This document shows, piece after piece, positions 455-39,530 of a stretch of DNA of 64,000 nt (position 1 is the stretch's first letter; the number at the start of each line of letters is the position of its first letter). Source of the DNA: an uncultured virus (IMG/VR IMGVR_UViG_3300031760_003860). Taxonomy: Duplodnaviria > Heunggongvirae > Uroviricota > Caudoviricetes. The stretch lies in IMG/VR virus record IMGVR_UViG_3300031760_003860; one strand, 5' to 3'. The notes under the pieces were generated by a model, which saw nothing but the letters and a program-made list of their open reading frames with translations, did not search any database and had not been told where the DNA came from. The translations under genes were made by a program, and so were the position numbers.

Positions 455-1315
455 GAAAGCCACAATATTAAAGTTGCGAAGAAGCTATTTAAAGCTGGTT
501 GTAATGTAATCCACCCACCAAAAGGAATCAAGGTTCATAGCAAATTACTCGGAATACAAATGTCACATGGTAAAACTTATAATTATATAGGAACAGGCAA
601 TTTCAATGAAAAGACTGCAACTGGTTATGTGGATTATGCATATTTATCTAACGATAGAGAAGTGTACCAAGATATTCAAAATGTTATTTGTAGTAAAAGT
701 ACGGATGCCAAAAAACTTATTCTCTCACCAGATAACATGAGAAGTTTTTATAATGAACAATTCTATTTTGCAAGAGAATCTGTAAAAGAAGGTAAATTCT
801 GTGAGATAATTATAAAAGCAAATAGTATATCAGATAAAAAACTCATTGATGCGATATATGATGCAGCTATCAATGGAGGTGTTAGATTTAAGCTTATAAT
901 TCGTGGTATTTGTTGCATCACTCCTTGTGAAAATATTAAGGTGTACTCTGTAGTAGGTAAATATCTTGAACATGCTAGAGCTATGGTTATTAGTGTTTAT
1001 ACGGAAGATAATGAAACGTCTTTGACTTCCAAATTGATAAAAAGAAAATGCTTTATTGGAAGCGCCGATTTGATGCCAAGAAATCTTAATAGAAGAATCG
1101 AAGCAATCATCCCAATTGAACGAGGTGAAATTAAAAGTATAATTCATAATCAATTAGAACTTGAGATGGCTGGTAAGAATTATACAATGAATAAAGATGG
1201 TAGTTATACATTCAATGACCGTCGAATCGATTCTCAATTAGATAATGTGCTACAATTCATGACAGAAAAAGAGAAGGCAAATGGAAGTAAGAAAAGCAAA
1301 AAAACTTCTAAGTAA
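455..1315 (+). CDS. ppk: Polyphosphate kinase 1, 3' exon (5' exon lies outside window)
   Basis: Frame is open from 455: ESHNIKVAKKLFKAGCNVIHPPKGIKVHSKL, then IGTGNFNEKTA, IKANSISD, LIIRGICC, VGKYLEHAR and IGSADLMPRNLNRRIE. These are the PPK1 C-terminal PLD-like domain motifs. Confidence 0.92.
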   Translation, partial: ESHNIKVAKKLFKAGCNVIHPPKGIKVHSKLLGIQMSHGKTYNYIGTGNFNEKTATGYVDYAYLSNDREVYQDIQNVICSKSTDAKKLILSPDNMRSFYNEQFYFARESVKEGKFCEIIIKANSISDKKLIDAIYDAAINGGVRFKLIIRGICCITPCENIKVYSVVGKYLEHARAMVISVYTEDNETSLTSKLIKRKCFIGSADLMPRNLNRRIEAIIPIERGEIKSIIHNQLELEMAGKNYTMNKDGSYTFNDRRIDSQLDNVLQFMTEKEKANGSKKSKKTSK

Positions 1316-22800: not shown

Positions 22801-25800
22801 AGCATCTTTGGCAGCAGTTGCACTTCTAGTAGCTAATGTTGTGTTGGCGGCGGCTTTTTCTGTAACATTACTTGATGCTGCAATTCCAGCCTTTCCAGCA
22901 GCTGTGCCTGCTCCAGTTTCTATACCGTGAATCGCACCTGAAATTAGTCCTTTAACTGCAGCAGTCGCACCAACTGTTTCAGTAATAACAAACTTAAGAG
23001 GATTCTTAAGAATGTTTAAGATAGAATTAGCAGCTTTCCCTATTGTAGTAACACCTGTTTTAAGCCAAGCAGGTAGTGAACTTAAAGCAGCCATCGCAGC
23101 AGTACCAACAGTTTCCAAAGTGCTATTCGTACTATTATCACTCTCATCATTCATAAAATAATTGTTATTAATTGTAGTAATATTATCTCCTGCAGCCATT
23201 GGAAGCATTGGCGCTTCGGTCGCTTGATGATTAGCTGAATCTTCTCTAGAAACAGAATTTGTAAACTCTGATTCTCCTTCTAATCCAGAATACATTGCAG
23301 AAGCTGCACCCTGAGATGCTGCACTTACTCCTTTCAAATAACGCTTAAATCCATTTGTTCCAGAAATCCCAGCACCTAACCTATTTGCCTCTGCTCGACT
23401 AAGAGAACCATTATATGAATTAGTTAATGAAGTAAATGGACTAGCTGTTGCCTTTAAACCACTCAATCCACTTACACCAGCAGTAATCGTATTCTTTGCT
23501 CCATTCGCTAATTTTTTATAATTACCTCCTAATAATGTATCTTGTAGTGCATTATATCCACTTGATACTTTACCGAAAATATTAGAACCAAAATTAAATG
23601 CTTTTCCTAAACCTGATACAACTTTAGAATTTTTTACAGCTGTAAAGACTTTACCTAAAGAACTAAATAATCCGAATCCACCACGTTTAAATCTCCAAGC
23701 AGAATTTGTAGCGTTCATAGTTGAAGATGCGTCATAAACTCCAGAATATTCTGGACCTCTTGGATCACTAATAATTGGGTTACCATTGGCGTCTAGTCCT
23801 GTAGCTACTACATAATGACCAGCATTTGTATAAGGCGTACCATATCCGCCAGCACCTGATAATAAAACTGGTCTACCATTTGCCAGCTCATTCATTATAA
23901 ATGACTCACTAGGGTGCACACTCTGTGTTGCACGTAATCCCGCAGCATTTGATGCAGAATTTACAAAGTTCCAATTTGTGCCTGTAGAATCACTGTAACC
24001 TTTAGATTTAGCATAAGCTCCCATAATTGCAGGATTGATATTTCTACCGAATCCACCTGCTATCATAGACATTGCCGTAGGACCACAACCTGTTATACCA
24101 AATCTACCTAGTTTATTATAATTAATTCCAGACCATCTTGGGTCTTTTTGAGAGTAATAAGGAGTACCAAAACCGCCTTGTCCACCATCCGGGTCACGCA
24201 TGGTAAATCCGTTTTCTCCTTCTGGTCCACGAATTCTACCATTCTCATCTCTTTCATTTCCCTGATAAAACAGATGGTCATATCTGTTCCAATTTAAAAC
24301 TGAATGTGATACGCCATTTTCATCTGTATGATGAATACCGACTAATCTATCAAGAATTTTAGTCAAAGTTCTTGCAGCATCTTTCATATGTTCTTTCATA
24401 CCTTTTTGATGCTGAATACTTTCATCCATTTTATCATTAGCTCTACGACCAGTATCATTCAACTCAGTCATAGTGTCTTTCAAGCGTTCCATATCTGATG
24501 GTAAAGCGTCTCCGACATAATTCTGAGCCTGTTCTTGAATGGCTTTATTACGTTTATCTTTACCCATCACAGACGAAATATTTAATAACTCTTGTAAATC
24601 CTTATTCTTTAGAGCTTTTGCATTCTTTTTATCTTTTGTAGAATCAAGTAATTTGGTGAGTTTTTTAAGTCTTTTAGAAGAGAACCTATCACCAAATTTT
24701 TCTTTCAATTCTTCATCACTCATATTGAGGATATCATACATAGAGTCAATCTGATACTGGGTATCACTATCATAGTTCTCCTGATAATCCTCTCCTCTAG
24801 CTTTTGCTCGAACTGCGCTAAGAATCATTTGTTTTTCACGTAAACGTCTATGTTGTTCTTCGCGTTCTGCAGTTCTCTTTTCTTCTCGAGCTTTGCGACG
24901 CTCGTCATAATCATCATAATTTACACGCTCAATAACATTTCCATCTCTATCTACAATGTCGCCACCATGAGCTTTACGTCTTGCACGTTCGTCTCGGTTT
25001 ATAACACCATACATACGGTCTATTATATTACGTCTACGTCTTACTACTCGATGATTACCATTCTCGTCATATTCGTAATTACCATCAGAATCACGTTTTA
25101 AATCCCAATAGTACTTTAAACCTTTTTTCTTATCACGTTTTTCTTTTGCAAGAGCTACTTTTTCTGCTAACTTGAATGGTGCAGAAATTACTTTTCCTGC
25201 TAATTTGAATGGATTAGTAGCGAGCCCCTTAACACCTTTCCAGATGAGTCTACCAACTTTACCAAAAAATCCATTTAAACGTTTATCGACACGTTTGAAT
25301 ATATTATCAATTCCGCCTAAAAGTTTTGAACCAGCAGCTTTAAATAAATCTTTCGTTTTTACAGCCATTCCAATTGCAGCATTTTTAATTGGCTCAGTTG
25401 CATTCATAAACGGCATACCGATACCATCAATGAACCAGTCTTTTATATTAAGTGCAAGTTGTTGACCACTTAACTTTAATGGTGCGAAGACATTTAATTT
25501 TGTCCAGTTTCTAAACTGTCCCATTAATCCGCCTTCTTTTTTACCAGTATCTTTATTAAAGGTACCAAATACTCTTTCTTTCCATTTATTAGAAGCTGCT
25601 GTAATACCTAAAGCTGCACCAGCTAATGCTCCACCAAGAGGTCCTAATGGAGTTAAAGCTGCACCCATAATACCAAAACTTCCAATAACAGAGGATAAAG
25701 CTGCTCCAGAGATAGCGCCAGCCGCAGCACTTCCTGCAACTTTTCCAGCATTTCCGTCTGTACGCATCTTGCCAAATATAGAACCTAAAAGTCCTTTATT

Positions 25801-28800
25801 AGAACGACGCTTACCTTCATTATCTTTAGGTCCAAATAAGAAATTCTGGAATGTGTCTGAACGCTTTAATATACCAAAACCAGCACCCATCAAAGCTCCA
25901 CCGATTGGTCCACCTGGTAATAAAAACGATGGTAATAAACCGATACCTAAGGCTCCCTTTAAAAATCCTACAGTTGCCCCACCAACAATAGGAACTTTGT
26001 TATCCTTAAAGAATTTCTGAGTCTTGGCACTGATTACATTACCGACTCTTTCTCCAGTTTCTTTATCCTTTTCTCCAAATAACCAATTCTTAAATTTTTC
26101 AGATTGAGAAAGATATCCTACTGCACTACCTATAATAGCTCCACCGATTGGACCACCTGGTAAAAATAATGAACCTAATAAACCTAAACCTGAACTACCA
26201 GCTAAAGCACCACCGATAAAACCAGTAATGCCACCAGCAGCCATTTTAGGAGCTCTTTCTTTCAAATTCTTACCGAAATCTTTCATTTCGACAGACATTC
26301 TACTACGATATACCTTAGCTCTTCCATCTGGTCCAGTTGCAATATATTCACTTGGACCAAAAAGTGCTTCGCCTAAAGTTTTAAATCCATCAGATAATGA
26401 ATTCAGTGCCCCTTTAACAAAACCACCTTTTTTACCTTCTCCATCTGTATCTTTTTTATCACCAAAAAGATATGACTTAACTGTATTCTTTAATCCATTA
26501 AAATCTTTCTTTAGTTCGGGAAAGACTGCGTTTTCTGTAGCATTATGCTTTACGCCTTTGCTATCTGTCCATTCTTTTCCTGTAAAGAAAGCCTTCATAG
26601 TCCGTGTTACGTCATGCAATTCATTAGAAGTTTCAGATAAAATTCCACCAGAACGCAAACCTGTTGATTCATTCAATTCTCCGAGTAAGTTTTCTTTTAT
26701 ATTCTTACCTTTTGCTCCTAATATATCATATAGGTCAGATTCTTTTACTTGTGTAAATAAACCATTTTTACCAAAAAGTTTATCTTTAAACCAGTCACCT
26801 AAGTCATCCATCTTAACTTTAAAGGTAGATAAAGATTTATTCATAAAGTTATTAGAATCATCGCCATCTTCAGAACCAAAAACGATATTATAAAGGGTAT
26901 TATCCATACGGTCGAATACCCCTGCAATCATTCTAGCTGGAGCTGTAAATACAGATTGCACAGCATATTTCCAATCATTCAGTTTCTCTTGTGCTGATTG
27001 ACCCATTTTACCTGCTTTTGTTTTAGAGATTTCATCCATAGCTTTGCTAATCATGTTATCATTAGGATTAACTGGTTTATCTACTTCGGCTAACTTTCTC
27101 TGAATTTCTTCAACACTAAAGTCTTGACCTGCACCAAATACGACTGTACCAATGCCTCGTTGTCTTGTGATTTGCTCTTCGGTTAAAGGTGTAGCACTAC
27201 GTCTATTCATAGAGTCATAATATTGCTTCTCCTGATAAGTCATATCGTTAAGGAACGACTCATTAGGATTATAAGCTCCGCCACCTTTACCTTTCTTTCC
27301 ATTTCCAACAGTATAAACTTTAATACCATTTGCAAGCATAGTTTGAATATTACGAAGATAAGATAAAGATGTTTGACCATATTTATCGTGTATTCCTGTA
27401 GTCTTCCAATTCTTACTATTTTTATTTCTACCATTATCTATCTCATCGCCACTGTATTTGCTAAACTGAGCGTTGTATTCATATGGATTTTGTTCTGATT
27501 CCTCTAAAATCTTCTTTCTAGCGGCTATTGCATTTTGTCTGGCTCTACCGTTCAAAGCCATTTTTTGATTTCTAGGTAGATTATTGTACATTGCAATGAT
27601 GGCATTTATATCATCCTGCGAATAACTATATCCGTTGTATGTTAAGCCTTCTAAAATTTCCCGTAAATCTTTGAAACCTTTTTTACCATAATCACTTTTT
27701 GAAGTTGTAATACCTGAAATACTAGAATCTGTAGAGAGTTTCAATAGAAGCTTATCTATCTTCTCTCCTAAATGCATATCTTCTCCATTGGCATTTAAAA
27801 ACTTAGCATTTTTCGTCATAGCATATCGAATATCATAAAAGTTTGATAACATAGCATCGTTTACTTTATTATCAAATTCATCACGCATTCCATATGCAGA
27901 ACGCCATTTACCTTTTGCAAGGTCAAACGCTCTCTCTTCTCTTCCAGTTAAAGCGGCTTCAATTTTTCTTAAATAACCTGGTATTACTTCTACGATAGAT
28001 TTTCTCACATATCCATCGAATGGAACAGCTTTCTTATTATAGTTACCTAAGTCTATGCTACTTTTTGTATTAGGAGTAACTCCAAAAATACGTCCAGCTA
28101 ATGCATATAATGGGTTATCGCTATCTCGTAATCCAGATATTTTCGATAACATTGCTGGGAAAAACTCTGAAAACGTCTTATCAAACGCCGCCATACTTTG
28201 CTTTGCAAGTTCTGGAACTAACTTTTCAGCAATAGTATCTGTAACCATCTGTAATGGGGATGCTAAGAATAATTTCATATTATCCTTATCAGACATCATC
28301 GCTTTAATCATAGACAATCCAGGAGTTTCATCAATCGCATTACCTGTATTACGTTTTATCATACCAAGATATGACTTGATATCCAATCCTCCACCAGATA
28401 AAAATACCTGAGTAGGGTCATAACCTTTGTATGCTTCTTCTTTTTTTACTTCAGTAAGTTTCTTTAATTCTGAAACTTGCTCAGATAACAACTTCAAACT
28501 ATCTTCATAATATTTCTGTGAAGACTCTATGAATTTACTAACAATTCCATTATTAAAAGAAATCAAAGAACCAATATTCTCATTAACAGTACTAAGATTC
28601 CTATTTGTATTTTCATTACTTTCTACAATAGCACTGATGGTTGTCTCTGTTAAAGAACTCATCAATTTATTGCTGGCTTTACTTGTAGTAATGATAGCAT
28701 CTGTTGTTGCCTTTGTCGCTTTAACTAAAGGGCTTTTTTCGGTTGCATTCATATCTATTTTATTGATAGTAATGGATGCACCATCTAAGTCTACATCTTC

Positions 28801-29154
28801 ACCTAAATCAAATGAATCTTCAAAATCATCAAAGAAGTCATCACCAAGCATATCATCATCCATACCAACACTTTCTAATCGTTCTTGGTTATAGAACTTA
28901 CCTGTCTTTAAATCCTCTTTGGCATTCTTTAGTCCTTCTTTGACCATTTTTTTATACTCATCGAAAGGCGTAGACTTTATTTTAATAAACTCTTTCAAGT
29001 TTTTTGCCTCTCCAATTTCTTCACGTATAGTTGAAGAATTGGAAGATATAAAGTCTAATGTTGAATTAAGCTCATTAGAAACGCTATTTGATGCAGTATG
29101 TCCAATAGACCTAGCCACATTCTTAAAATAATTATTAGCACTTCTTTTTGCCAT
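16825..29154 (-). CDS. Giant tape-measure-like tail protein with two C39-like peptidases, CHAP and glucosaminidase domains
   Basis: 4109 aa. Gly-rich hydrophobic repeats (LLPGGPIGGA). Two YxSQKDxRW...GCGPTAM...GHYVVA...DP domains. CHAP (YWCASFVSW...HVGIV...TVEGNT...GYGRP). GH73-like (ALESGWGTS...NLWGWGA). Confidence 0.8.
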   Translation of the reverse strand: MAKRSANNYFKNVARSIGHTASNSVSNELNSTLDFISSNSSTIREEIGEAKNLKEFIKIKSTPFDEYKKMVKEGLKNAKEDLKTGKFYNQERLESVGMDDDMLGDDFFDDFEDSFDLGEDVDLDGASITINKIDMNATEKSPLVKATKATTDAIITTSKASNKLMSSLTETTISAIVESNENTNRNLSTVNENIGSLISFNNGIVSKFIESSQKYYEDSLKLLSEQVSELKKLTEVKKEEAYKGYDPTQVFLSGGGLDIKSYLGMIKRNTGNAIDETPGLSMIKAMMSDKDNMKLFLASPLQMVTDTIAEKLVPELAKQSMAAFDKTFSEFFPAMLSKISGLRDSDNPLYALAGRIFGVTPNTKSSIDLGNYNKKAVPFDGYVRKSIVEVIPGYLRKIEAALTGREERAFDLAKGKWRSAYGMRDEFDNKVNDAMLSNFYDIRYAMTKNAKFLNANGEDMHLGEKIDKLLLKLSTDSSISGITTSKSDYGKKGFKDLREILEGLTYNGYSYSQDDINAIIAMYNNLPRNQKMALNGRARQNAIAARKKILEESEQNPYEYNAQFSKYSGDEIDNGRNKNSKNWKTTGIHDKYGQTSLSYLRNIQTMLANGIKVYTVGNGKKGKGGGAYNPNESFLNDMTYQEKQYYDSMNRRSATPLTEEQITRQRGIGTVVFGAGQDFSVEEIQRKLAEVDKPVNPNDNMISKAMDEISKTKAGKMGQSAQEKLNDWKYAVQSVFTAPARMIAGVFDRMDNTLYNIVFGSEDGDDSNNFMNKSLSTFKVKMDDLGDWFKDKLFGKNGLFTQVKESDLYDILGAKGKNIKENLLGELNESTGLRSGGILSETSNELHDVTRTMKAFFTGKEWTDSKGVKHNATENAVFPELKKDFNGLKNTVKSYLFGDKKDTDGEGKKGGFVKGALNSLSDGFKTLGEALFGPSEYIATGPDGRAKVYRSRMSVEMKDFGKNLKERAPKMAAGGITGFIGGALAGSSGLGLLGSLFLPGGPIGGAIIGSAVGYLSQSEKFKNWLFGEKDKETGERVGNVISAKTQKFFKDNKVPIVGGATVGFLKGALGIGLLPSFLLPGGPIGGALMGAGFGILKRSDTFQNFLFGPKDNEGKRRSNKGLLGSIFGKMRTDGNAGKVAGSAAAGAISGAALSSVIGSFGIMGAALTPLGPLGGALAGAALGITAASNKWKERVFGTFNKDTGKKEGGLMGQFRNWTKLNVFAPLKLSGQQLALNIKDWFIDGIGMPFMNATEPIKNAAIGMAVKTKDLFKAAGSKLLGGIDNIFKRVDKRLNGFFGKVGRLIWKGVKGLATNPFKLAGKVISAPFKLAEKVALAKEKRDKKKGLKYYWDLKRDSDGNYEYDENGNHRVVRRRRNIIDRMYGVINRDERARRKAHGGDIVDRDGNVIERVNYDDYDERRKAREEKRTAEREEQHRRLREKQMILSAVRAKARGEDYQENYDSDTQYQIDSMYDILNMSDEELKEKFGDRFSSKRLKKLTKLLDSTKDKKNAKALKNKDLQELLNISSVMGKDKRNKAIQEQAQNYVGDALPSDMERLKDTMTELNDTGRRANDKMDESIQHQKGMKEHMKDAARTLTKILDRLVGIHHTDENGVSHSVLNWNRYDHLFYQGNERDENGRIRGPEGENGFTMRDPDGGQGGFGTPYYSQKDPRWSGINYNKLGRFGITGCGPTAMSMIAGGFGRNINPAIMGAYAKSKGYSDSTGTNWNFVNSASNAAGLRATQSVHPSESFIMNELANGRPVLLSGAGGYGTPYTNAGHYVVATGLDANGNPIISDPRGPEYSGVYDASSTMNATNSAWRFKRGGFGLFSSLGKVFTAVKNSKVVSGLGKAFNFGSNIFGKVSSGYNALQDTLLGGNYKKLANGAKNTITAGVSGLSGLKATASPFTSLTNSYNGSLSRAEANRLGAGISGTNGFKRYLKGVSAASQGAASAMYSGLEGESEFTNSVSREDSANHQATEAPMLPMAAGDNITTINNNYFMNDESDNSTNSTLETVGTAAMAALSSLPAWLKTGVTTIGKAANSILNILKNPLKFVITETVGATAAVKGLISGAIHGIETGAGTAAGKAGIAASSNVTEKAAANTTLATRSATAAKDAAAIAVREKSAIGTTANATPALEASTKGETLLLEDKYANSTLNDIRYNSIYGKQKETAKVGATTSEKATAKASANATETASTTGFTSDSNFATKVLEQADSKEYNKIKNSYIKDAKKNGVNATWDDSLTIEQNVDDITRQIYEKNHPNISSASTAATESTIEIVDSDGSIISMPEGSYSKAGSSTHKAGKYIEGVERVTGDVIDSDGNPVGGKESWWSKFKNRFFNKESTSTKAVKTDTIDFNDPNFNARILTTKNGKVIASTVKNGDSMVMNGLTVNGTRTSINPLLNIGAVGINEAHNGGYAALSKDTKTIGQALYSAATDKLLASNNKGLQTVGKAMETGAAKKAATKEAISKVTKEVTEKVSNSAIGKFIGFVKKIIKSLVSNSKLAKLIGEKGAKVLEKTMNSKIVAKLSEKVLAPFATKISAALAKIAAKTGTEAVTLGIGTAVFATYGAVTGALDASNLFHVSNDEVTTPMRTISSIIKAWIDASPIVGPILDVLNEIFKSLSDIDVKSLIACEIYKGYCNLFDKEAGETFKAAQSSFKEDYQAFKEKTGIDDLTENEYNDAKNKTSTSKMFSAVGKGLSKIGGFLGGTKAETYYTDEDGNKYSDNGDGSYTVYDSKGSKYGTTTTLPENVKKTEVSAKEGIAEKAYKAGVKGVKNIVKSELDYYKSIGNALIHPGKTLKKLKNNPIGTLKSAGKKFVNRYVERGKTVLNVGKGLAQDTVKLASKAGNALKTGAKNFFTRDTKKVYYLTDGSGKYYQAKDDGTYELCNVNGDVMPVEPISDTELYTLMGNAQVKAGTKVVRDFAIVEGSKKLGNIVSKGFKKGFNATTKFFSSIGSKASKLASSAASAVAKTSSNIGAFFGGRKDKVWYDESGNYYATEDNGKSYTYYQASGTPISNITADEFTELLKTNLLVEKTITTEKNILGKLGDGFSKVGNAASSGFNKASKAITGLFKSIGSKASKLANKVGSTANKIKNNIGSFLLGKKETRYYDAEGNYYVINKGNVSYYSSTGSLLSENISINDLTDIIPTLTEQTVTVEKNVLEKAGSGIANIGSKSAKAFSKGLKAVGGAFKTIGSKVSEKFSALTAEIKEKGIGGYLAGKLNSAKTAVVDFFSSSTFEGYISPDGSYYIREKNGWTHCSATHSPLETGISDEEFNEKYKPLLTYKADIKKQSGMSDAFNKIQDKISSAWSSAKDTVSNAWDSFTSWISGKGETINEDISGVTAVGQGTGGRGKGKFFGIGGGKGDEANNFPYFSQKDARWGNTSYSANDGGTLADNGCGPTAMAMIVKGMRGDVNPKQIADYTKAKGYNDSTGTNWNFVSDTASQYGLSSAINIKPTQKALDSQIANGPVLLSGRGGNGTPYTNAGHYVVAVGKDKAGNYIINDPRGKQYSGKYSAKDLVNSTNAAWSFTNGGRGTVRMSRVLGGKGGNNFTATDVIAVAKNEVGYVEKASNNNLDSKTGNAGSSNYTKYERDVFGSNGNYWCASFVSWCFYIAAGKNKNKATSILLSLTRSADGMMRAFKNKNQFTTSNPQPGDIIFFSGSRHAGANHVGIVTNVDSGKVYTVEGNTSVGAGVVDNGGGVAEKSYALATSKILGYGRPNYDGTSDFSGINSSDSSSNESATALDRVVSIFDDALDSGVWKSWGFSSNPFEDSDNSSSSSSSTVTNLSGSSIKNMTGSSFRTADLKSIPFASQEQIASALKGAFINGHPTSVFTNANLNKDAKGIYEAQGKTGLSALVPLAIGALESGWGTSSIARNKGNLWGWGAVNSNPYGGAKTFNPNNLGESFGIYSSNLLDKYYTEYGAKSIDSIGMGNNPAKKGYAYNNNGSISTTWAPSVESTGTRILKAMGVGGGKGDGLSVSSYSNYYIPKNNKPSTSNMNYHRNSIELRKPIGGYGGIQVGVVEKKDSTQVLEEMLKFLEAIATNTGNSTEGLEKVRTAISGIKASNTNNVVNTTNNVATSNTATTTKAGKGYATAKNISRGR

Positions 29155-29179
29155 AGTTATTAACCTCCTCTCTTTGTAT

Positions 29180-29191
29180 TAGGGAATTGTT
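29180..29191 (-). promoter_or_regulatory. AR9-type late promoter
   Basis: AACA-ATTCCC-TA upstream of the tape-measure RBS (GAGGAGG). Confidence 0.7.
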
Positions 29192-29369
29192 TCTTATAAA
29201 AAATTAAACAGATTTTAGACAAAAAATAGATAGTAACTAAAAAAGTTACTATCTATTTTACAAAAGGAATCCCCATAGTATCAATTAAAATACTATGGGG
29301 AGTGCGCAAAAATGAAATCAATTTAACAGCATGATTTATACACACTAATATGTTTATTGATTTTTATTT

Positions 29370-29903
29370 TTACTGATTGCTCTTAAGATGTTTAGGACAA
29401 GTAGAATCTGCTTTAAGCTTCTTGTAAGCTTTCTGGTGGCTAACGCCAGCTTCACCTGTCTTTGGATTGTGATATGGTTCATCATGCTCGGCAATTAAGT
29501 TTAAGTTAATTGAACCCTGGAAGTCTTCTTTTGGCATAAATGTAAATTTCTTTCCTGCTGCCATATACTGATATAAATCCTCTGATACAAACTCATATAA
29601 TCCATTTACGTTGTCTACTTCAATAGACATAGCCAATGATTCAGCTTCTGCGTTGTCATGTCCGGCTTTCTTTAAAATATTCTTAATCATACCCTGACGG
29701 AAAGCTTCTACTGGCTTAACATCTTCAACTACCATTTCTCCGTTTACAGTCTTAGTCTTCTTTGTTGTATAATCAACCTCATTGAACAAAGCCTTTGAGA
29801 TTAAATTGAAGTCTGCTGAAGAATGTGTTGACATTTTCTCTCCTGTTTTTGTTGTTGGCACACTGCCAAGAATACTGTTCCATACATCACTAAAATTTCT
29901 CAT
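29370..29903 (-). CDS. Putative HU/IHF-like DNA-binding protein
   Basis: YHNPKTGE...KAYKKLK resembles the HU beta-arm (RNPxTGE); strong RBS. Confidence 0.4.
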   Translation of the reverse strand: MRNFSDVWNSILGSVPTTKTGEKMSTHSSADFNLISKALFNEVDYTTKKTKTVNGEMVVEDVKPVEAFRQGMIKNILKKAGHDNAEAESLAMSIEVDNVNGLYEFVSEDLYQYMAAGKKFTFMPKEDFQGSINLNLIAEHDEPYHNPKTGEAGVSHQKAYKKLKADSTCPKHLKSNQ

Positions 29904-29957
29904 GATTAAAATCCTCCTTGGTATTAAATATTTATTTTATCACACCTTATGGCGTAA

Positions 29958-30140
29958 TTAACAATTGATTGTGCATTTGCCTTTATGAGTTTTAGGCTCT
30001 GCATTTTCTTTTACACTATTTTGTTGTAATAGTGATTTCTTCTTTTCATCATATTCTTCTTTATGATTGAGATAATTCTTTTCAGAAAACTCCAATATTG
30101 TATCTATCGTGCAATTGTCAAAATCAAATTCTCTAGCCAT
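29958..30140 (-). CDS. Hypothetical protein
   Basis: RBS AGGAGGTG; TATATTAT early-type motif at 30174-30181. Confidence 0.6.
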   Translation of the reverse strand: MAREFDFDNCTIDTILEFSEKNYLNHKEEYDEKKKSLLQQNSVKENAEPKTHKGKCTINC

Positions 30141-30292
30141 AATAATTCACCTCCTTTGTAAAACTCCATTAAAATAATATATTCTTATTTCTATCTTTGG
30201 TGAATATTATGATATAGTTCTATAATAAATAATTATTTACACGAAATAGGTAGAGTATAGTTGTACTTTACTATACTCTACCATTTTAGGAA

Positions 30293-30697
30293 TCAGAACG
30301 GAATCAATGCCTTTGACGTTACTATATATTTCGCATATAACTTATCATCATTTCCAAGAATAAGAATAGAAAACTTAAGATTATCATAAGATTTGAATGT
30401 ATAGTGATATATCTTAAAATTCTTTAATTCATTTTCTGGAATATCGTTTCTTATTATCTGCCCCATTTTTTCTCCATAAATATCACATAGATGGTAATGG
30501 TCGAATAAATTTTTGTTATCTGAAAATAATGCAAAAACTTTCGCCCTTGTTTCAATATAATCAGATGTAGTAGATTTTGGTAAACCAATTTCTACTGGTG
30601 CTATTAATTCCTCTTTTCTCCTATTATAATACATATACGCAAAATCTAAATCCCCGTTTAAAAAATAACTTTCCACTACTGTATAATTAATCGCCAT
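30293..30697 (-). CDS. Hypothetical protein
   Basis: 134-aa ORF directly downstream of the RNAP beta gene, followed by a terminator hairpin. Confidence 0.65.
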   Translation of the reverse strand: MAINYTVVESYFLNGDLDFAYMYYNRRKEELIAPVEIGLPKSTTSDYIETRAKVFALFSDNKNLFDHYHLCDIYGEKMGQIIRNDIPENELKNFKIYHYTFKSYDNLKFSILILGNDDKLYAKYIVTSKALIPF

Positions 30698-30724
30698 AAA
30701 TTATACCCCCTAGAACTAGAAAAT

Positions 30725-33700
30725 TTATTTATCGTATATCTCTTTTAACCTATCTTTTAACCCCATAATGATTTTATATCCAAACATAGTAATCAGGATA
30801 CTTGGTGTTTTACGAGCGTTGATAGATAAAGGTGCTAAAGCTAAAGATATCTCCTCATCAGGTCTATTGATGGTATAAGGTTCATAACTTTCTGGAATAA
30901 CATCTCCTATAGTTCCTTTCAAAGCTGTAAAAAACATTACATTCACATGATTCGTTACTTCATGCAGTTCTCTTATGAACTTCCCTAAGTCTCCTTAGGA
31001 TATTAGACTATATCTTCCTTATTATAACTTTTACCATTATAATAAAGCCTCCCATTTCGTAAAGGACCAATTTCGTCCACCCCACTTGGGTCTACTCTAC
31101 TCGCTTCTTCACTTAAGTCTTTCTCTTAAGCTATGCTTTCGATAGTCGTTGAACTCATATCTTATCATTGTAAGATACTTCGCTGCGTCGATTGCCTCTA
31201 CCTATAAACTTTTTACCATACCTCAGAAGTTACTCCTTGCCACTAAGTATGTTACCATCTTAGTTTGGTATTTATAGTCTAACGAGACTTTCCCGCAATT
31301 AGGAAGGTTTAACGTGACCAATCGCGTTTTAGTCACCTTATCACCGATACTACAAATATCTCTATATTTTATATAGAAAATGATAAGTACTCCATCGTTT
31401 ACTTTATTTCCTTTTATAATACCGTCTTTGGTTTCAATTTTATGGTCTGGCTCTGATACCAACATACCACAGCGATATACATCGCTACCTTTTTTATCAT
31501 ACTTCTTTAATAAAGCTTTCTTTGCTTTCACAGAAGACCAATAATCACCAACGATTTTCTGTAAAGAAGGTGATAACTCTGATAATTCAGAACCAGAGTA
31601 TACTTTAATTCCCTCGATAACACCACTATATTTTGCTTTAATAGGTGTTTTACCAAATGACTTAACTTCTTCTTTCAACTCTTCACCGATATTACCTAAG
31701 AGTTTATTCAAAGATTCTTCTTCGAAAGAATTTTCAAATACCATAAGTTCATCACCTAGTAATACTCTATCTCCTTCTTTAACCATTTTATCTACTGTAG
31801 CATTCTTACCTAATACTACAGGCACTTCCATTACTACTTCAGTAGCCATATCATTAGCAGCTTTAGAAGTAATGAATGTAGAGTCCTCAAAAGTAGAGTA
31901 CTCTTGCATAACAGCAATCTTTTCTAACGCTCCGATATTAAACTTATTACCAAATAATGTATTAGAAAAGAATTTACTATCATAAGCTAAGATATCATCT
32001 TTATCGAACTTGTCTCCTACTTTTAAATCATAGATTAACTGATTGGATAAGAAAAATCCTCCTGCACCATTCTTGTCAATCGTCTTAGAAATGTCAATTG
32101 CTTTAGTATAAGCAACTTCTCCTTTAGGCTGGTATTCTACTATCATCAAACCTAACTTTTCGTTGATTTCTTTAACAACGCCTTTTTCTTCTGCCGTTAC
32201 AACGAAGTCGTTAGATAAATGATATTGAATAACCTGCTCTGAACCATTTGAAATCAATACCGGAGATGCTTTTTCTACAGGAACAACATGCTTTGACTGT
32301 TTAACTGCCCGATTGGTATTCACATGAGTCGTTACTTCATGCAGTTCTCTTATGAACTTCTCTATATCACTATAGATGTCTAGACTATATCTTCATCTCT
32401 ATATACTGTTACCATATATAGAGAGCTTCCCATTTCGTTATCACTTGATAACTACTCTACTCAGTTACTCTCTTAGATATTTCTATCTAAGATACCCTTT
32501 CGATAGTCGTTGAACCTTACTCAAAAAAATAAAAAAAATAATGCCCGTTTATACTTCATCTCATTGAGATGTCTCACCAAAACGGAGCCGAAAGGTTCGA
32601 TTTACATTGGTAGCACATATGTACCACCAATGGCACTATAATCCCTATGTCACCATAGGGGGTTGCCCCACGCTTCCTCTCCTTCTTTAAGGAGTCTTCT
32701 ACCTATCACTAGGTACTAAAAGGCACCACTGGTCAAATAAATGATCAGCTGAATGTCATCTAATGCTATTAGACTTTATTCACAATAATAATATATACTT
32801 ATATATTTATATTAAACTATTTTGAGTATTGGCTGCTGATTGTCCTCGAAGGAGTTCCCAGCAATTAAGGAAGTTTGTAGTATATGTCACCATATACTGC
32901 CACTACTAGTTAATGGCTGTTCTTGTTGTGTCATCGCGTGTTGCTCCCAAAGGAGAAAGTAATTCTCCTGGTGTTAATAAGTTAACATCTTTTAATTTAT
33001 CTAATTCATCTTCATGTAAATCCATATAACCACGAGCATTTGTGATGGTAGGCTCCAGTGTTAGGGACCGGACAACACCACAATTCATGTCTATTGTATC
33101 TTCCCACAGGTCGTTAATCTGTAGAGTTCTCTTATGAACTTCTCTATATTGCTATAGACGATGAGACCATATCTTCATCTCTATATACTGTTACCATATA
33201 TAGAGAGAAACCCTTTTCGTTATCACTTGATAACTACTCTACTCAGTTACTCCTTACTATATTTCTATAATAAGTACCTTTTCGATGGTCGTTGAACGTT
33301 CCTCTTATTAAGAGGCTTCGCTGCTGATTGTCCTCGAGGGAGTTCCCAGCAATTAAGGTTTATTTGTAACTATTATCACTAATAGTTGCCCCAACATGTT
33401 CTAGGGCTAGTCGACATGCCGATTACACCTAACATCGAGCTATCATATGAACGTTTCTCTAATGTATATGCGTCCGATAAGTTCATACCAGCAGGTCCTT
33501 TTGGTGTACAAGCATGTAACTTTTCTGCTTCTGTCATAGGATTTAACTTTGAATAATTTTCTACAATCTGATTCTGTAATACATTCTTAATGACAATATC
33601 CTGCGGTATTGACATCTTGACTGGATTATTACTATATGCAGTATTCTTATATCTCAAATAAGCATCGGCAATCGCCTCATATAAGAATGTGACTACAATC

Positions 33701-36267
33701 TCAGAACTTCGTATTCTTGCATTATTGAAATTCATCTCCGCGATATACTTATTGTCAGACAGTAATTCATTTGCAAATAATACTAAGCCACAAAAATCTG
33801 TTGGATAGTTAAAGTCATCCAATACTTCTTTTGTAATTGGTCCTATAAAAAACTCATAGAACTGCTCAAAAGCCGATGCTAATAACTTTTTACCATAATT
33901 GGTTTCAATAATGTCAAAATAGACATCTTTTTCATTGAATTCAGAGAATTCATATAATTCCGTATGCAGCTCTTTTAAACCGTTTAATAATAACTGGTTT
34001 TTAAACGGTGAACCTTCATATAAAAGATAGCCATCTGCGAACTTTATACTGTACTGATTCTTATAAATCTTAGCTCTTGGACTATCTGAGAATGAGTAGT
34101 TAATCCCTGCTTTTTTAAGAGTAATAGTCAATCCTTCTAAATAAGACAATAAAAGAATAACAGGTACTCTCTTCTTCATGATAGTACAGTAAGAATAAGT
34201 CGCTTTCTTACCAGGGTTCATTTTATTGAAGTTCTCTTTTAATTCACCACCTAATCTATCTGCGATATATTCGCAGAAGCTCTTATCTTCAACTAATTGG
34301 TCATTTGTGTTAATCCACAATAACTTCTTTTCTTTTGTCTTAGGATCAACTTCATACCCAAAACAGATATCAAATTCTTTCTCTTTCTTAGCTTTCATCT
34401 CTTTTACTAATGCTTCAGCGTCTTCCTGATTGAATAAGATATGAACTTTTCCGTTTGTTAATTCCCTATAGCGTTTACTAAGTTCATCATATTCAAAGAA
34501 TGTATCATAATCTTTATTAACACTGAAAGAGTTTCCTCGTTTAACCCGTATGGTAGACGCTTTCAATTTCTCTATGGATTTTACCATCATCTCAATATCT
34601 GTAGATGACTTTGTATTATAACGAGAAACGAAAATCTTTCTATTATATTCAGAAGAAACTAATTGTACTGTATCATGAGATGTTTTTACAATTGGCTTCA
34701 TCATCTGCTGATGAATGATAACCTTTTTATTTCCACCTAAATAGATGTATCGGTCATCTAAGAAGATAGGCATATCGAATTTTAAGGTATGCCTTACACG
34801 ATTCTCATCTTCTAACTTAACTGTCCAAGTTTCTTTAAGATTTAATTCATCTGACGTATCCTCTACCGATATATCTAAGATATAGATTCCTATCTTCTTA
34901 TCATTTAAAGACTTAATGACGCGGGTTATATCATTACGATACATTTTCTTGATATAAGTCTTTTCGATGTTCGGATAAGCTATCTTAGTAATATTCCGAT
35001 TTGATGTATTTACTTTATTCGATACATCGTGTATTGGAACTTTAATCTGTTCTCTTGGCAATTTATCCACTTCATCAATAGAAATACTGTCAAGTTTCAA
35101 TTTCTTTTGTTTTTCTCGCAATACCGTATCTCTCTTAATAGATGCTGTACTACGACCAGTTGCATGTTTTTCTCTTACTAACTGAATTTCACGCATTACA
35201 TCATCTGTATTGATTTCACCGTCGCTTTTTGCATTTTTATCAATTACGTCAGCGATTTCTTTTTCTTCTTCTTTATTGGTATTAATACGTTCTTCATGAA
35301 CATCCACAGTTCCGTCAGCATCTCCAGAGAAAGAATACTTATCTTTAAAGATATCTACGGCTCTTCCCAATTCCTTTTTTAATTCGGAAGTATCAATAGG
35401 GTCTTCGATATCTTCAATAATAGTATTAGGTAATATCTTATTTACTAATCTTCTATATAGAAGGACTTTTTTCTCATCGTGTTTAGCTGGGTTAATCTTA
35501 AAGAATTTATTCTGACCTACTATTACGATATCGATATCACCTAATGCTTTGTATGCATCTGGGTCTTTTCTCATAAGATAATAAAAGATGAATAAAATAT
35601 TATCCCACTGCTTCTTCGTCATATTATTATCGATACCTTTCTTAGATATCCAAGAATTTGCATCAATAAGCATTGTCTTATGATAATCTTTTAATCTAGG
35701 GTCATTGATAACGTTCTTAGTGATTGTCATAATAGTATTGACTTTAATAATCATACTATTACTGAAGCCTTCTCTTTCTAAGTACATCTGATTATACTTA
35801 CTCATATCATAATAGAAGTTGAAATGATTTGCATTATGAATTTCATTGATACAATTCATTCCAGTTTCTTCAGTAACTTTAGCGTAAATTGGTATACGGT
35901 TCTTCTTATTAACCTCTCTAAACGTCTTATTTAGGATACGCAAAGAATAACGATAATCAATATAATATCTTTTATAACGATTCATCGAGTTAATGCTCGT
36001 ATGATTGATTAACTTAATAGAATCTTCGATAGAAGTTGTATTTAAAATAACAACTTCGTTCTTCGTCGGTTCTTTTGTATTATAAGGTAAGAATATATTC
36101 TTTTGTAGTTTATAGTAAGGCATAGCTGAGAAAATACGATACGCTTCTGTAACAGGTTCTAGATGGTCTATATCTACCATACTTTCTAAGTATGCTTTAC
36201 TACTCTCATAAATAGATTCTTCTCTTTCTTTAGATATCCCATTCATAACAATAGTATTACTAACCAT
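30725..36267 (-). CDS. rpoB: Phage multisubunit RNA polymerase beta-like subunit (probably virion RNAP), 4 exons: 36267-33403, 33091-32913, 32309-31331, 30934-30725; ~1410 aa
   Basis: Motifs YIYLGGNKK, RIRSSE, NPMTEAE...KGPAGMN. Spliced junctions give TSP|DMNCGVVR, DDTTRTAM|AVKQ and GDKVT|FFTALKG, matching conserved beta regions. TFEDSTFITS also present. RBS AGGAG before ATG 36267. Confidence 0.9.
30935..31330 (-). mobile_element. ORF-less group I intron (RNAP beta intron 3)
   Basis: P1 GTGACT|...GGTCAC with U.G; P/Q/R/S core; ends GTAATG; frame restored. Confidence 0.92.
32310..32912 (-). mobile_element. Group I intron (RNAP beta intron 2) with a ~300-nt structured insert in P6
   Basis: P1 GCCAT|...GTGGC with U.G; splits an ATG codon (AT|G); ends CCAATCG; P6 TACTCAAAA/TTTTGAGTA encloses the insert. 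Confidence 0.92.
32525..32795 (-). ncRNA. Candidate structured RNA nested in the intron P6 loop
   Basis: TATATTAT promoter-like motif (32788-32795), several GNRA-capped hairpins, stems with G.U pairs that favour the minus strand, and a terminal stem plus long U-run; no ORF. Confidence 0.55.
33092..33402 (-). mobile_element. ORF-less group I intron (RNAP beta intron 1), apparent terminal A
   Basis: P1 GCCCT|...GGGGC with U.G; compensatory P7 GACCA/TGGTC; the in-frame 3' exon begins GAC ATG AAT after ...CAATA. Confidence 0.88.
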
Positions 36268-36293
36268 AATTATTACTCCTTTCTTTCCTATAT

Positions 36294-36305
36294 TAAAGAT
36301 TTGTT
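36294..36305 (-). promoter_or_regulatory. AR9-type late promoter for the RNAP beta gene
   Basis: AACA-AATCTT-TA. Confidence 0.65.
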
Positions 36306-36327
36306 TTTTACTTAATATACGAAGCAC

Positions 36328-36618
36328 AAGAAAAGACCTAAGCTTAAAGAAATAAGCTTAGGTCATTATATTTAAAAGTTGCACGGGACTTCCAATATTC
36401 CCAATGTGCGTATACGCCTTACGATACGTATACAATAAAAATCGAATTATACTCCTTCAAACGCGCATTGCTAATTACTATACGGAGTTGTAACTTAGGT
36501 GTAACCACTGACCCATTACGGTGCCAGCTTGATGACGCAAAGGATGCACTCGACAACTCATATACGCCCTCCTGCTAGGGATTCAAATAATTCTATAATA
36601 ATTACCGAGCCTAACATT
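36328..36618 (-). ncRNA. Candidate structured ncRNA (minus strand)
   Basis: AACA-CTTTAG-TA promoter at 36618-36629; GC-richer multi-stem body; perfect terminator GACCTAAGCTTA/TAAGCTTAGGTC plus T-run. Confidence 0.55.
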
Positions 36619-36686
36619 ACTAAAGTGTTTAATGAATTTGAAAAAATAATTTTTTATAAAAAAATATATAGATGCAACATATAATT

Positions 36687-36838
36687 GAAAGACGGACGCT
36701 TTCATATGAAAAACTAGTCAGCCGCAGATTTAGTCCCATTGGATCAGGGGCGTTGGAGGCGGTAAGATGGATTAGTTCAGGGATTTGGTGTAGGTGCGAA
36801 GCTCGTGAAGATAGCTTGCGCCTATACCCTGTTTTTGC
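36687..36838 (+). ncRNA. Candidate structured ncRNA (plus strand)
   Basis: AACA-TATAAT-TG promoter at 36676-36687; stems AACTAGTC/GATTAGTT and GCCGC/GCGGT; long 3' hairpin plus T-run. Confidence 0.5.
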
Positions 36839-36960
36839 AAAATCGTATTTTTTGTATAAGTACATATACATTATTTTTGTGTATATAGATAGTCTATATA
36901 CTTCATATACCTGTCGTATATGAATTACTATGTTCCTAGATAAAATCTGGAGAGGAAGGT

Positions 36961-37344
36961 ATGGTGACTATTATGAAATCAAGAGCTAAAGGTTTAGAAA
37001 TTACAGTAAACTTCAATATCGGTATCAAAGCTGGAAGTATTGAGTTATCTAATGAGAGAAACGATAATCCAAGAAAAAATAATGAGGTTTACAAAGATGT
37101 GGATACATGCTGCAATTTTAACATCAAGTTCGGTGCTGATGAATATGAGGATGAAATCGACTTAAAGGAACTGACTGAAGCTTTGAATACTCTTGTCAAT
37201 AAATCTGTCTCCGAAGTTAAAGAGAAGATTGAAGAACAGAAAACGACTGAAGAATCTGCAGAGAAAAACTCAGCAACAGATTCTTCCGAAGAACATTATT
37301 CTGATGATATCGACGGAGATGAAATCGCAAACGGAATGTGCTAA
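36961..37344 (+). CDS. Hypothetical acidic protein
   Basis: 127-aa ORF with purine-rich RBS and a downstream terminator. Confidence 0.65.
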   Translation: MVTIMKSRAKGLEITVNFNIGIKAGSIELSNERNDNPRKNNEVYKDVDTCCNFNIKFGADEYEDEIDLKELTEALNTLVNKSVSEVKEKIEEQKTTEESAEKNSATDSSEEHYSDDIDGDEIANGMC

Positions 37345-37393
37345 TCCTTACATAATAAAAGAAGGTTTGAACTAATAGATTCGCCTTCTTTTT

Positions 37394-38400
37394 TGTAAAT
37401 TATTTCCATTTATTTTTTATGAGAAGTTATTTTTATTATTTTATTGCTCTATTGTCCAAATATAGGTACGATATAAATAAATTCATAAAAAGTTCATTTT
37501 ATTATAAAATATCTCTAACATAGTAGTAATAAAACATTAGCCCGAAGGGGCAAAGGTGAAACGACTAGAAAGATAGGAATAGAAGAAAAATAAATATAAT
37601 TGCAATTACTTTTAATTAAATTGATTATAATTAGCATGCCTATTATAATTTCTCTTTATTATACTATATTATATTATAATATCCCAAGTGAATTTTTTTA
37701 TTTACTTGGGATATTTTTTTTGATTAATAGATGAATTTTAATATTTTTTACCAATTCTATATTTTGTATATTAAATATATTATACCAAAAATATAAAAAT
37801 GGGAATAATTATTACTGTAAATTATTTCCATTTATTTTTTATGATAAGTTATTTTATCATTTTATTGTTCTATTATCCAAATATAGGTATGATATAAATG
37901 AATTCATAAAAAGTTCATTTTATTATAAAAAATGTATAACATAGTAGTAATAAACAATGCCCCGAAGGGCGCATTGTTTATAATTCCCCGGAGGGGAACC
38001 CGAACGGGGAATTATCAAAGGGAGCTCCGGAGGAGCGACGAGCGGAACGAAGTGGAGCGGAACAGAAGAAGCGGGAGCATACAAGATGGAAGGAGAAGAA
38101 AGAAAAGAAGAGAAGAAGTAGGAATAGGAAAAATAGAAATATAATTATATAAATTAAAATTATATGAATTACAATTATGAATTTATATATTTACCATTTA
38201 ATTTATATTGATTATTATTTTATCATATATTATATATGCTTAATATAGTATATATAATATATTATTATATTGCAAAATGAAAAATTTTTAATTAGTTTGG
38301 ATAATATTTGACAGATTAGTAGAAGAATTTTAATATTTCTTTTACTAATCTGATTATTTTTGTTAAAAATTGTATATTAAATATATTATACCAAAAGTAA
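37394..38400. repeat. Imperfect ~155-bp direct repeat (37394-37550 and 37816-37970) plus a shorter second repeat in a very AT-rich non-coding region; possible replication origin
   Basis: TGTAAATTATTTCCATTTATTTTTTATGA...AACATAGTAGTAATAAA...CCCGAAGGG occurs twice. TTGTATATTAAATATATTATACCAAAA occurs at ~37763 and ~38370. Confidence 0.75.
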
Positions 38401-39129
38401 GAAAAAGAGATAAAATTGATAAAATTTAGAGAAAAATAATAAAATTTACCAATAAATGTAAAAAGTATAGAAATACTAAAAATCTTATTTCCCAATATAA
38501 GGAGACTATTAAAAGTCCAATTAAAAATAAAAATTGATAAACAAAATTATAATAAACATTCCTGTGAAGGAATGTTTATTATACATTCTATTGCTTTTTA
38601 TCCAAGATATGTTGGTTAATAGAAAGCAATAATTTTATATAATTTATGCTATATAATAAACTAGAAATAGTTTATTGACAATCCATAAAATTCATAAATG
38701 TCTTGAGCTAGTTTGGTGAATACTCAACTAGCTCCCTTTCTATTGTAAATTCACTCCATATATAAATAATTTAATTATATAAAGAAAGAGTGATATAATT
38801 TACCAAAATAACTAATATTGCAATTAAAGTATCTACCTACATGGGTATACACTTCTATTATCAATTTAGATGATATATAAGAGAAACTTCTTAAATTATT
38901 TGAATTTACTTTAACTGGAATATTTAATCTTAGGGCAGGAGAAAAAATAGATATGGGATTATTAGTGAGAATTCTATGTTCCGACCAGAATATAACAGCG
39001 TCTTTTTATTTACAGATAACGATGGGGCAGAGTATTATTTGAACCTATATACATTTAGACATACTAGTGATGATAAAATTATTTTATCATTCAAACAGTT
39101 TCAATTAAATTGAATTTTAATATTTGCTT

Positions 39130-39450
39130 AACATAATAGTATATCCATTATGCTGAGTGGATATGACTGATTACTCCACTTCATTACCACCAGAGATGGA
39201 TAATACACTATCTTTGGTGGTAACCCCTCATTTTTAATTTATATAACATAGTAGTAAATACTTATTTCTCCATTGATACAAGTATTTACTTCCCATCCAT
39301 TAGAGAGTAGTCCCATAACTCTCTAATGGATTCTATTTTTAAAATTAAATAAGCATTAACATTTATATGAAACCAAGAAATTTGTACAACTTATATCATT
39401 TGTCTAGTAAGCCATTTTCTACATCGTGGTTTACTGGGCATCTTATTTTT
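39130..39450 (+). ncRNA. Three tandem promoter-hairpin-terminator small-RNA units
   Basis: AACA-N6-TA/TG at 39130, 39245 and 39358, each followed by ~90 nt ending in a hairpin plus T-run. Confidence 0.5.
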
Positions 39451-39468
39451 CTATCAATGAAATAAAGA

Positions 39469-39476
39469 TATATTAT
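39469..39476 (+). promoter_or_regulatory. Early-type promoter motif TATATTAT
   Basis: TATATTATTT.A.TGATATCGGT is shared with 48439; TATATCAT variants at 47771 and 56131; each precedes an accessory gene. Confidence 0.55.
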
Positions 39477-39530
39477 TTTATTGATATCGGTTAACAACTA
39501 AGTTATAAAATACTAAAGGAGGAATCAGTT

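Follow-up and report, generated by a model that had tools for sequence, protein, structure and literature searches.

A folded insert without an open reading frame in the P6 loop of a jumbo-phage group I intron: a candidate early RNA cassette

Here, we analyzed by computational means a 64,000-nt stretch of DNA from an uncultured virus (IMG/VR record IMGVR_UViG_3300031760_003860; called the window in what follows), with a focus on intron E, the middle one of three group I introns (D, E, and F) that interrupt the gene for the virion RNA polymerase beta subunit. In the slot that usually belongs to a homing endonuclease, the P6 loop of intron E holds 293 nt that lack an open reading frame (ORF), fold strongly on the sense strand, and contain a match to the early promoter of phage AR9. 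Positions within the beta gene are given in the sense direction of the minus strand.

The virion RNA polymerase beta gene and its introns

The window has a GC content of ~32%, and its proteins match PHROGs families of jumbo-phage multisubunit RNA polymerases. The large minus-strand gene that runs from ~36327 down to 30725 finds its best protein matches in the virion RNA polymerase beta subunits of the Bacillus phages Goe21, PBS1, and AR9 (~32% identity), which is why we regard the source as a distant AR9/PBS1-like jumbo phage. Contigs from bovine gut runs, twenty entries from 17 studies, carry near-identical DNA.

Intron D (33402-33105; Rfam match 33413-33142, 69.6 bits) and intron E (32912-32310; match to RF00028 at 32922-32360, 41.3 bits) enclose the 192-nt exon 2 of the beta gene (33104-32913), all three with limits that we infer, and intron F follows on the same strand (Rfam match 31367-30983, 56.1 bits). 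Further introns lie elsewhere in the window, namely, G on the minus strand (14783-15166) and B (~5780-6010), C (~54640-55133), and A (1-~470, cut by the window start) on the plus strand. A covariance model of the 3' core (the P3'-P8-J8/7-P7'-P9 region), which we call R1 and which was built from 39 introns with intron E in the training set, recovers all seven introns of the window, each with an E value of 5.5e-9 or lower. Against RF00028, an IA2-like model, the alignment of intron E covers the whole model (E value, 7e-8), with a score that the 293-nt insertion keeps under the gathering score of 50; its 3' core reaches 69.9 bits with R1, and by alignment its core sequences are nearly identical to those of its close paralogue, intron D (69.6 bits). 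As judged from its sequence, intron E is a group I intron. We placed its 5' splice site by reasoning after the U of GCCAU (the U.G pair in P1); its 3' splice site was put after G32310 because the exons then join in frame, and the resulting join, ...RTAM/AVKQSK..., would parallel ...RVGMQTTKQSK... in AR9.

As the original prediction had it, the other six introns all have a short P6, with hairpins of ~15 to 30 nt that can be read directly in every one of them; in paralogue D, a hairpin of ~15 to 20 nt (GAAGCCTCTTAATAAGAGGAAC) stands at the place of the cargo. Introns F, A, C, and G have an ORF-less extension of P5 of ~80 nt. Introns A, C, and G also have in common an ORF-less, hairpin-rich stretch of ~150 nt past the intron end given by Rfam (300-470 and 54990-55133 on the plus strand; 14780 to at least 14700 on the minus strand). 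Downstream of intron C, the frame of the exon resumes only at ~55134 (...CACATTAG/GATAAG), and the real introns would therefore be ~500 nt long, with a long extension on the 3' (P9) side. Intron A lies upstream of an ORF with polyphosphate-kinase C-terminal domains (560-1312, plus strand), and the corresponding gene may be split by the intron.

Coding content and fold of the P6 insert

The insert occupies positions 32819 to 32527 and is closed by the 9-bp stem P6a, in which the 5' strand TACTCAAAA (32828-32820) pairs with the 3' strand TTTTGAGTA (32526-32518). Upstream of TACTCAAAA lies the P4' strand CAGCAGCC; downstream of TTTTGAGTA, the J6/7-P7 junction AGGTTCAACGAC can be read as AGG and then GTTCAACGAC. 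Because it is flanked by CAGCAGCC (P4') on one side and GTTCAACGAC (J6/7-P7) on the other, the cargo is the terminal loop of P6a. Its longest stop-free frame, on the sense strand, has 42 codons, in agreement with the original prediction of a P6 stem that encloses ~300 nt without an ORF. Under alternative genetic codes no long ORF was found in the cargo either (with any single stop reassigned, the maximum is 61 codons for the sense strand and 77 for the antisense strand), and the sole start preceded by a Shine-Dalgarno sequence, a GTG at 32672, opens just 8 codons.

The suspicion that the insert is a decayed endonuclease gene was checked at the protein level, and no remnant was found. In a tblastn search of a 310-nt target with six ORF products, comprising four intron-cargo products (from the IMG/VR introns L001, L002, and L024 and from AR9 g190) and two ORFs of neighbouring genes (from L001 and L002), the best E value was 0.11; none of the four longest open frames of the cargo matched Pfam at E values of up to 10. 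A control is provided by the same genome, where a frameshifted, decayed GIY-YIG gene right after intron B (~6090-6320, plus strand; 27% GC) can still be read as protein, with the fragments ...AVIYIYLIENVKTGKK / VYVGKTTNIKNRISQY... and, in a different frame from AVIYIYLIENVKTGKK, VYVGKTTNIKNRISQYIR. The cargo of intron E appears unlike this decayed endonuclease.

The cargo is composed of an AT-rich stretch with a promoter motif, ~250 nt of GC-rich hairpins, and a stem followed by a long U-tract. Whereas its first 100 nt have a GC content of 25%, the hairpin part reaches 45%, the 99.6th percentile of 175-nt windows. Its fold stands out from the rest of the window: a 306-nt segment folds at -89.6 kcal/mol (z = -4.85), with 0 of 100 shuffles as stable, and a 255-nt segment that begins at the predicted start and extends to the U-run has a z score of -4.74, with 0 of 200 shuffles as stable. 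When 1,276 windows of 300 nt from both strands of the 64 kb were ranked after correction for GC content, three of the top five overlapped the insert on the minus strand, and the insert-overlapping windows ranked first, ahead of all intron cores. Folding favours the sense over the antisense strand by 12.5 kcal/mol (-81.7 versus -69.2 kcal/mol), an advantage expected because of the two G.U pairs in the 12-bp stem.

In the predicted RNA, the 5' part (32781-32726) has the hairpin GUCUAAU-AGC-AUUAGAU (32774-32758) and a weaker hairpin (32751-32726). A central three-way domain (32726-32659), closed by GGUGCC/GGGCAACC, contains the hairpin UACCUA-GUGA-UAGGUA (32715-32700) and CUCCUU-AAAG-AAGGAG (32694-32679), in which a Shine-Dalgarno-like sequence is paired with its own complement; an alternative hairpin, GGGG-CAA-CCCC, could form at 32669-32659. 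The hairpin CCCUAUG-GUGA-CAUAGGG (32660-32643), which model R1 scores at 11.7 bits (E value, ~1), is followed by a 3' domain (32640-32538) with a 7-bp closing stem, AUAGUGC/GCAUUAU, round three hairpins, that is, a 12-bp hairpin with two G.U pairs (32632-32605), CGAA-CCU-UUCG (32599-32588), and CCGUUU...AAACGG with an inner hairpin, CAUCUC-AAU-GAGAUG (32585-32545). Directly after the closing stem comes the U-tract (U8 A U7 over 32538-32523, read as U7-A-U7 after the stem in the fold), the last four U of which also belong to the 3' strand of P6a; stem and tract together make a possible terminator in this modelled fold. Six hairpins had been named in the original prediction, and five of them (CCTA-GTGA-TAGG, CTCCTT/AAGGAG, CCCTATG-GTGA-CATAGGG, the 12-bp stem with its two G.U pairs, and CCGTTT/AAACGG) are part of the minimum-energy fold, while the sixth, GGG-GCAA-CCC, can form but competes with other pairing. 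The CCGTTT/AAACGG stem and the long U-run (32538-32523) that it placed at the end of the insert are both there.

An early-promoter motif in the layout of an endonuclease cassette

The early promoter of AR9, which is used by the injected virion RNA polymerase, is described as AAATATATATTAT-(6N)-G(+1) (Lavysh et al., PMC5312081). In the insert, the 5' strand of P6a is followed by 19 AT-rich nt, the motif AAGTATATATTAT (32800-32788), the spacer TATTGT (32787-32782), and a G at 32781 as the predicted +1, so that AAGTATATATTAT-TATTGT-G agrees with the AR9 consensus in 12 of the 13 motif positions and in the +1 G and qualifies as a putative early promoter. Matches with at most one mismatch plus the G number 3 in the window, compared to 0.36 expected. 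The motif includes the 8-mer TATATTAT (32795-32788), and TATATTAT-N6-G is also found 27 to 48 nt upstream of a Shine-Dalgarno sequence and ATG at +39469, +48439, and -30181; because of these three sites, the phage appears to use such a signal. A scan for sigma-70 promoters over 29000-36500 was uninformative (43 versus 36.9 expected).

Just downstream of the beta gene (29958-30186, minus strand), AAGAATATATTAT-TTTAAT-G lies 27 nt upstream of the Shine-Dalgarno sequence and ATG of a 62-amino-acid ORF. In AR9, this position is taken by a Hef-like homing endonuclease. Pfam matches none of the small ORFs at 30296-30697, 29958-30146, and 29373-29903, and the two compared with PHROGs (all but the 62-amino-acid ORF) match no family there either.

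The closest parallel to intron E comes from the AR9 orthologue of the beta gene, g189 (KU878088), which is annotated as joined from 6 pieces and in which Rfam locates five group I introns. The HNH gene g190 is described as early, with its promoter as well as its coding sequence contained in an intron of the late gene g189 (PMC5312081). Its cassette, within P6 (ACTCTCGTT...AACGAGAGT), runs from AAATATATATTAT through AATAGT, the start, a Shine-Dalgarno sequence, and ATG to the stop and the 3' strand of P6. Both introns sit in a virion RNA polymerase beta gene, belong to the same intron family, and have their cargo in the P6 loop, and both follow the same order of P6 5' strand, early promoter motif, six spacer nucleotides, start, cargo, and P6 3' strand. 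What differs is the cargo, a 226-amino-acid HNH protein at 24% GC in AR9 compared to 250 nt of ORF-less hairpins at 45% GC that end in a U-tract in intron E, and the site in the beta gene. The site of intron E corresponds to that of AR9 intron 4 (by the order of exons in tblastx, within the R..M...KQSK motif), which has a short P6 of ~15 to 20 nt.

Introns from IMG/VR extend this picture. In the jumbo contig L034, the P6 of a related intron contains ATTATATATTAT-TTTAAT-G and, with a Shine-Dalgarno sequence in front, an ORF of 276 codons. ORFs also occupy the identical P6-P7 junction in L001/L003 and L002, the P6 of L004 is short, and the junction TTGAGTAAGGTTCAACGAC was found in 4 IMG/VR introns. 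The cargo of intron E occupies the same place in P6 as the ORFs of AR9 g190, L001/L003, L002, and L034, confirming the claim that it sits where a homing endonuclease would usually be. With a promoter layout like those of AR9 g190 and L034 and a P6 slot in common also with L001/L003 and L002, the cargo has the architecture of an endonuclease cassette. A pattern search for P6 cargoes of similar length returned 26 loci, 25 of which were rejected as they bridge two adjacent introns (24 by regular expression and L027 by eye); the only real P6 cargo among them, L024, has a 98-codon open frame. Of the orthologous genes of LPJP1, AH12, BpSp, and LY01, only the one from BpSp showed introns, and no RNA family matched within them. 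The beta gene of this Bacillus phage (L040, 6700-10600) has at least five intron signals; three annotated ORFs (gp249, gp247, and gp246) fall within gaps of intron size and are encoded on the opposite strand.

The cargo of T4-type phage group I introns, an endonuclease ORF, has its own expression signals and can decay. Like intron E, T4-type introns are described as self-splicing introns in essential genes, with a cargo looped out of a peripheral helix (PMC12908238), and I-TevIII of the T4 nrdB intron is described as a defunct intron endonuclease (PMC2790892). Yet T4-type cargoes are, or visibly were, protein genes, whereas no protein trace was found in the cargo of intron E by tblastn or Pfam. 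A second structured RNA within a group I intron is known from twin-ribozyme introns, in which GIR1, the lariat-capping ribozyme, serves the endonuclease mRNA. In IStrons, guide RNAs that serve TnpB are reported to be tied to group I introns (PMC10690162). In both of these systems the RNA serves an adjacent protein gene; intron E has no such gene, and its cargo has no Rfam match.

Contigs from four sequencing runs (X3, X5, X15, and X17, of which X15 and X17 are RNA runs) were compared with the locus. A 520-nt contig of X3, from another study, covers 32680-33198 with 3 differences and links the initial 140 nt of the cargo with the 5' half of intron E, exon 2, and part of intron D; since it spans the junction between cargo and intron, this junction is real DNA. 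One contig of X5 joins 32521 to 32818 with 23 other letters in between, from which it follows that an E-like P6a stem with a short loop exists. Paralogous introns of other phages are a possible source of this joint and of two more, 32517 to 32830 in X5 and 32518 to 32855 in X15. Beyond a common promoter segment, other contigs of X5 continue in unlike sequence, with loose ends at 32775 and 32809, hints that the contents of the cassette may vary among strains or occur in other contexts; none of the 30-mers taken from these ends occurs in the window, and a 23-mer drawn from one end is missing from the viral contig collection. Contigs of the four runs leave 32553-32639 without cover and 32640-32726 almost so, and in the RNA runs the cargo is met only by a 112-nt contig of X17 that reaches its last 32 nt (32558-32527). 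We draw no conclusion from the missing cover because absence in contigs proves nothing and contigs cannot show transcript starts.

Searches for relatives of the cargo came back empty. With the whole of intron E as blastn query against 50,697 phage records, only the 3' core was matched (query positions 396-563), and the insert alone gave chance-level matches in the same records. Exact patterns from the cargo are absent from viral, metagenome, and genome contig collections, a protein-guided search for the locus with exon 3 found no relative in viral and metagenome contig collections, and there is no second copy of the cargo in the window. ARAGORN identified no tRNA or tmRNA gene in the cargo.

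Among the other genes of the window, an anaerobic ribonucleotide reductase NrdD (44501-47749, plus strand) has an intein with a LAGLIDADG endonuclease domain by Pfam, and an ORF of 4,109 amino acids (16825-29154, minus strand), presumably for a giant virion protein, has an endolysin-like domain near residues 3560-3740. Between them, at the strand switch, lies a 3-kb AT-rich intergenic region (36360-39530) with four copies, one with a mismatch, of AACATAGTAGTA, which resembles the AR9 late promoter (AACA-N6-TA); each copy is followed by hairpins and T-runs. The region also has repeated units of ~200 nt (37390-37600 and 37810-38140) and a purine- and GC-rich piece (37950-38125). Several windows of this region are among the best-folding in the 64 kb, which makes them candidates for small RNA genes.

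What the insert may be

Our preferred reading, to which we assign a probability of roughly 45%, is that the P6 loop of intron E is an expression cassette of the endonuclease type whose product is an early-transcribed noncoding RNA of ~250 nt. It builds on where the insert sits (P6), on its lack of an ORF, on the strong fold of the sense strand, on the promoter match, and on a layout parallel to those of AR9 g190 and L034. Early in infection, the injected virion RNA polymerase would start at G32781, six bases past AAGTATATATTAT, transcribe ~250 nt of self-contained hairpin domains, and stop at the stem and U-tract (~32538-32527). Late in infection, the same DNA would be read through within the pre-mRNA of the beta subunit, where the cargo would fold on itself, closed by the 9-bp P6a stem; as a consequence, the ribozyme core could still fold and splice itself out of an essential gene. 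As for the function of the RNA, our guess is that it might act in trans as an early decoy or regulator that benefits the intron or the phage in place of homing.

Several observations weigh against this reading. Promoter activity, termination, and a discrete RNA are all predictions from the DNA. The promoter statistics are modest, as the maximum among 100 shuffles is also 3 matches, and the bare TATATTAT, with 24 sites in the window compared to 18.0 +/- 4.5 expected, is not enriched (9 of 100 shuffles reach 24), though the sequence around it carries information. Moreover, AAGTATATATTAT departs from the AR9 consensus at position 3, and for AR9 g057 a one-base change at this position is reported to coincide with no early transcription (PMC5312081); offsetting this, the putative promoter at -30186 of the window likewise has a G there. 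A promoter is also equally expected in the relic of a lost endonuclease gene. On the minus strand within the insert, a scan for consensus terminators made no call because the stem is branched, the fold having a branched-domain stem and then the U-tract. In Rfam 15 (4,227 models, including those of riboswitches, ribozymes, GIR1, tRNA, and 6S), no family was found for the cargo at E values of up to 10, the matches over 32500-32860 being the P3-P6 piece of the intron itself and three noise matches of 11 to 16 bits; this check had been proposed with the original prediction. With no homologue in the collections searched, the whole case depends on one sequence, and no function can be named for the RNA. 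The literature covered describes no phage group I intron with a noncoding RNA gene as its cargo; further starts inside introns may be found in Tables S2 and S3 of PMC5312081. The idea of an RNA gene carried as intron cargo is favoured in part, by the endonuclease slot, the absence of an ORF or remnant, an exceptional fold of the sense strand, and the promoter match.

The insert could instead be a relic cassette with structural filler, in which the ORF was lost or replaced, what is left serves no purpose of its own, the hairpins were kept only to protect P6 folding and splicing, and the promoter is a leftover, whether active or inactive. Such a relic would account for a layout identical to that of the AR9 g190 and L034 cassettes, and CUCCUU-AAAG-AAGGAG followed by GTG resembles a sequestered ribosome-binding site before the 8-codon ORF. 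Endonuclease decay does occur, both in this genome (the frameshifted GIY-YIG gene after intron B) and, with the defunct I-TevIII, in T4 (PMC2790892), and the X5 contig displays an E-like P6a stem with a short loop. Yet tblastn and Pfam found no protein remnant, the 45% GC of the hairpin part and the best fold of the 64 kb go beyond what mere tolerance would require, a plain deletion would do equally well, and P6 has no need of a long U-tract after the closing stem, so we consider this explanation unlikely, albeit with a real chance of being right. Improbable, in our judgement, is an origin as debris or a mosaic of other group I introns, with hairpins copied from P8-J8/7-P7, P9, and P2 by nested insertion or recombination. 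It would explain a 21-nt exact blastn match (32574-32554) to the crAss-like phages cr55_1 and cr1_1, which falls where, by our own reading, an HNH-carrying intron in the major head protein gene has its P8 hairpin and the beginning of J8/7, as well as the P7-P3'-P8-J8/7-P7' order of CCGUUU-UGGUGA-(hairpin)-AAGUAU-AAACGG, the resemblance of CCCTATGGTGACATAGGG in the cargo to P9 of intron B, the 12 nt (TATGGTGACATA) in common with P2 of intron E itself, and the likeness of GAAUAAAGUCUAAU at the predicted start to GAAGAUAUAGUCUAAU of intron F. These similarities are, however, at chance level (BLAST E value, 1; best nhmmer E value in a 35-kb intron set, 0.43), the pieces are not colinear with one intron, model R1 finds in the cargo only the P9-like hairpin (11.7 bits; E value, ~1), compared to seven of seven true introns, and the cr55_1 intron is not recognised by Rfam at E values of up to 0.01. 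In cr55_1 (L042, 440-1300), an annotated HNH gene lies inside an apparent group I intron and overlaps its core.

A peripheral domain of the ribozyme, that is, a large P6 extension with GNRA loops docking on the core and a promoter-like motif by chance, would have a parallel in P5abc, which aids core folding in Tetrahymena. Two GUGA loops cap regular stems in the insert, with a GCAA loop in addition if the competing GGG-GCAA-CCC forms, and ORF-less structured extensions do occur elsewhere in this phage, in P5 (~80 nt; introns F, A, C, and G) and at the 3' side (~150 nt; introns A, C, and G). We nonetheless regard such a domain as quite improbable given that the first 100 nt combine 25% GC with a 12-of-13 promoter match plus the G, that the fold is a multibranched loop rather than a helix stacked on P6, and that a short P6 of ~15 to 20 nt suffices in paralogue D and in AR9 intron 4, the latter at the same site. 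That the insert is a novel ribozyme or guide RNA taking over the role of the endonuclease in homing strikes us as very improbable, indeed far-fetched: only the endonuclease-slot position and the precedents of IStron guide RNAs, as described in PMC10690162, and twin-ribozyme introns speak for it. The cargo matches no ribozyme or guide family of Rfam and has no notable match to the exon junction or the rest of the window, and Pfam detected no RNA-guided nuclease family of the TnpB/IscB type in 46 ORFs of the window, 30 of which had no match at all (the 4,109-amino-acid ORF was scanned against PHROGs only). The Rfam search, with no match at E values of up to 10, likewise gives no support to the ribozyme, guide, or sponge that the original prediction had offered.

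Under the preferred reading of an early RNA cassette, intron E would put a known vehicle to a different use. In phages, group I introns are seen as carriers of homing-endonuclease genes, and a promoter-driven noncoding RNA would be a different kind of cargo, one by which an intron could supply an early RNA while residing in a late, essential gene. It would also have a bearing on the debate over whether these introns are purely selfish or earn their keep. A broader proposal, that group I introns of jumbo phages can swap the homing endonuclease for an early, trans-acting structured RNA, a decoy or regulator in conflicts between phage and host or between phages, is at this point doubtful. If it were true, a trans-acting RNA cargo would give the intron a mutualistic reason to persist. 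Even if the cargo were inert filler, it would still show how an intron copes with the loss of its endonuclease gene.

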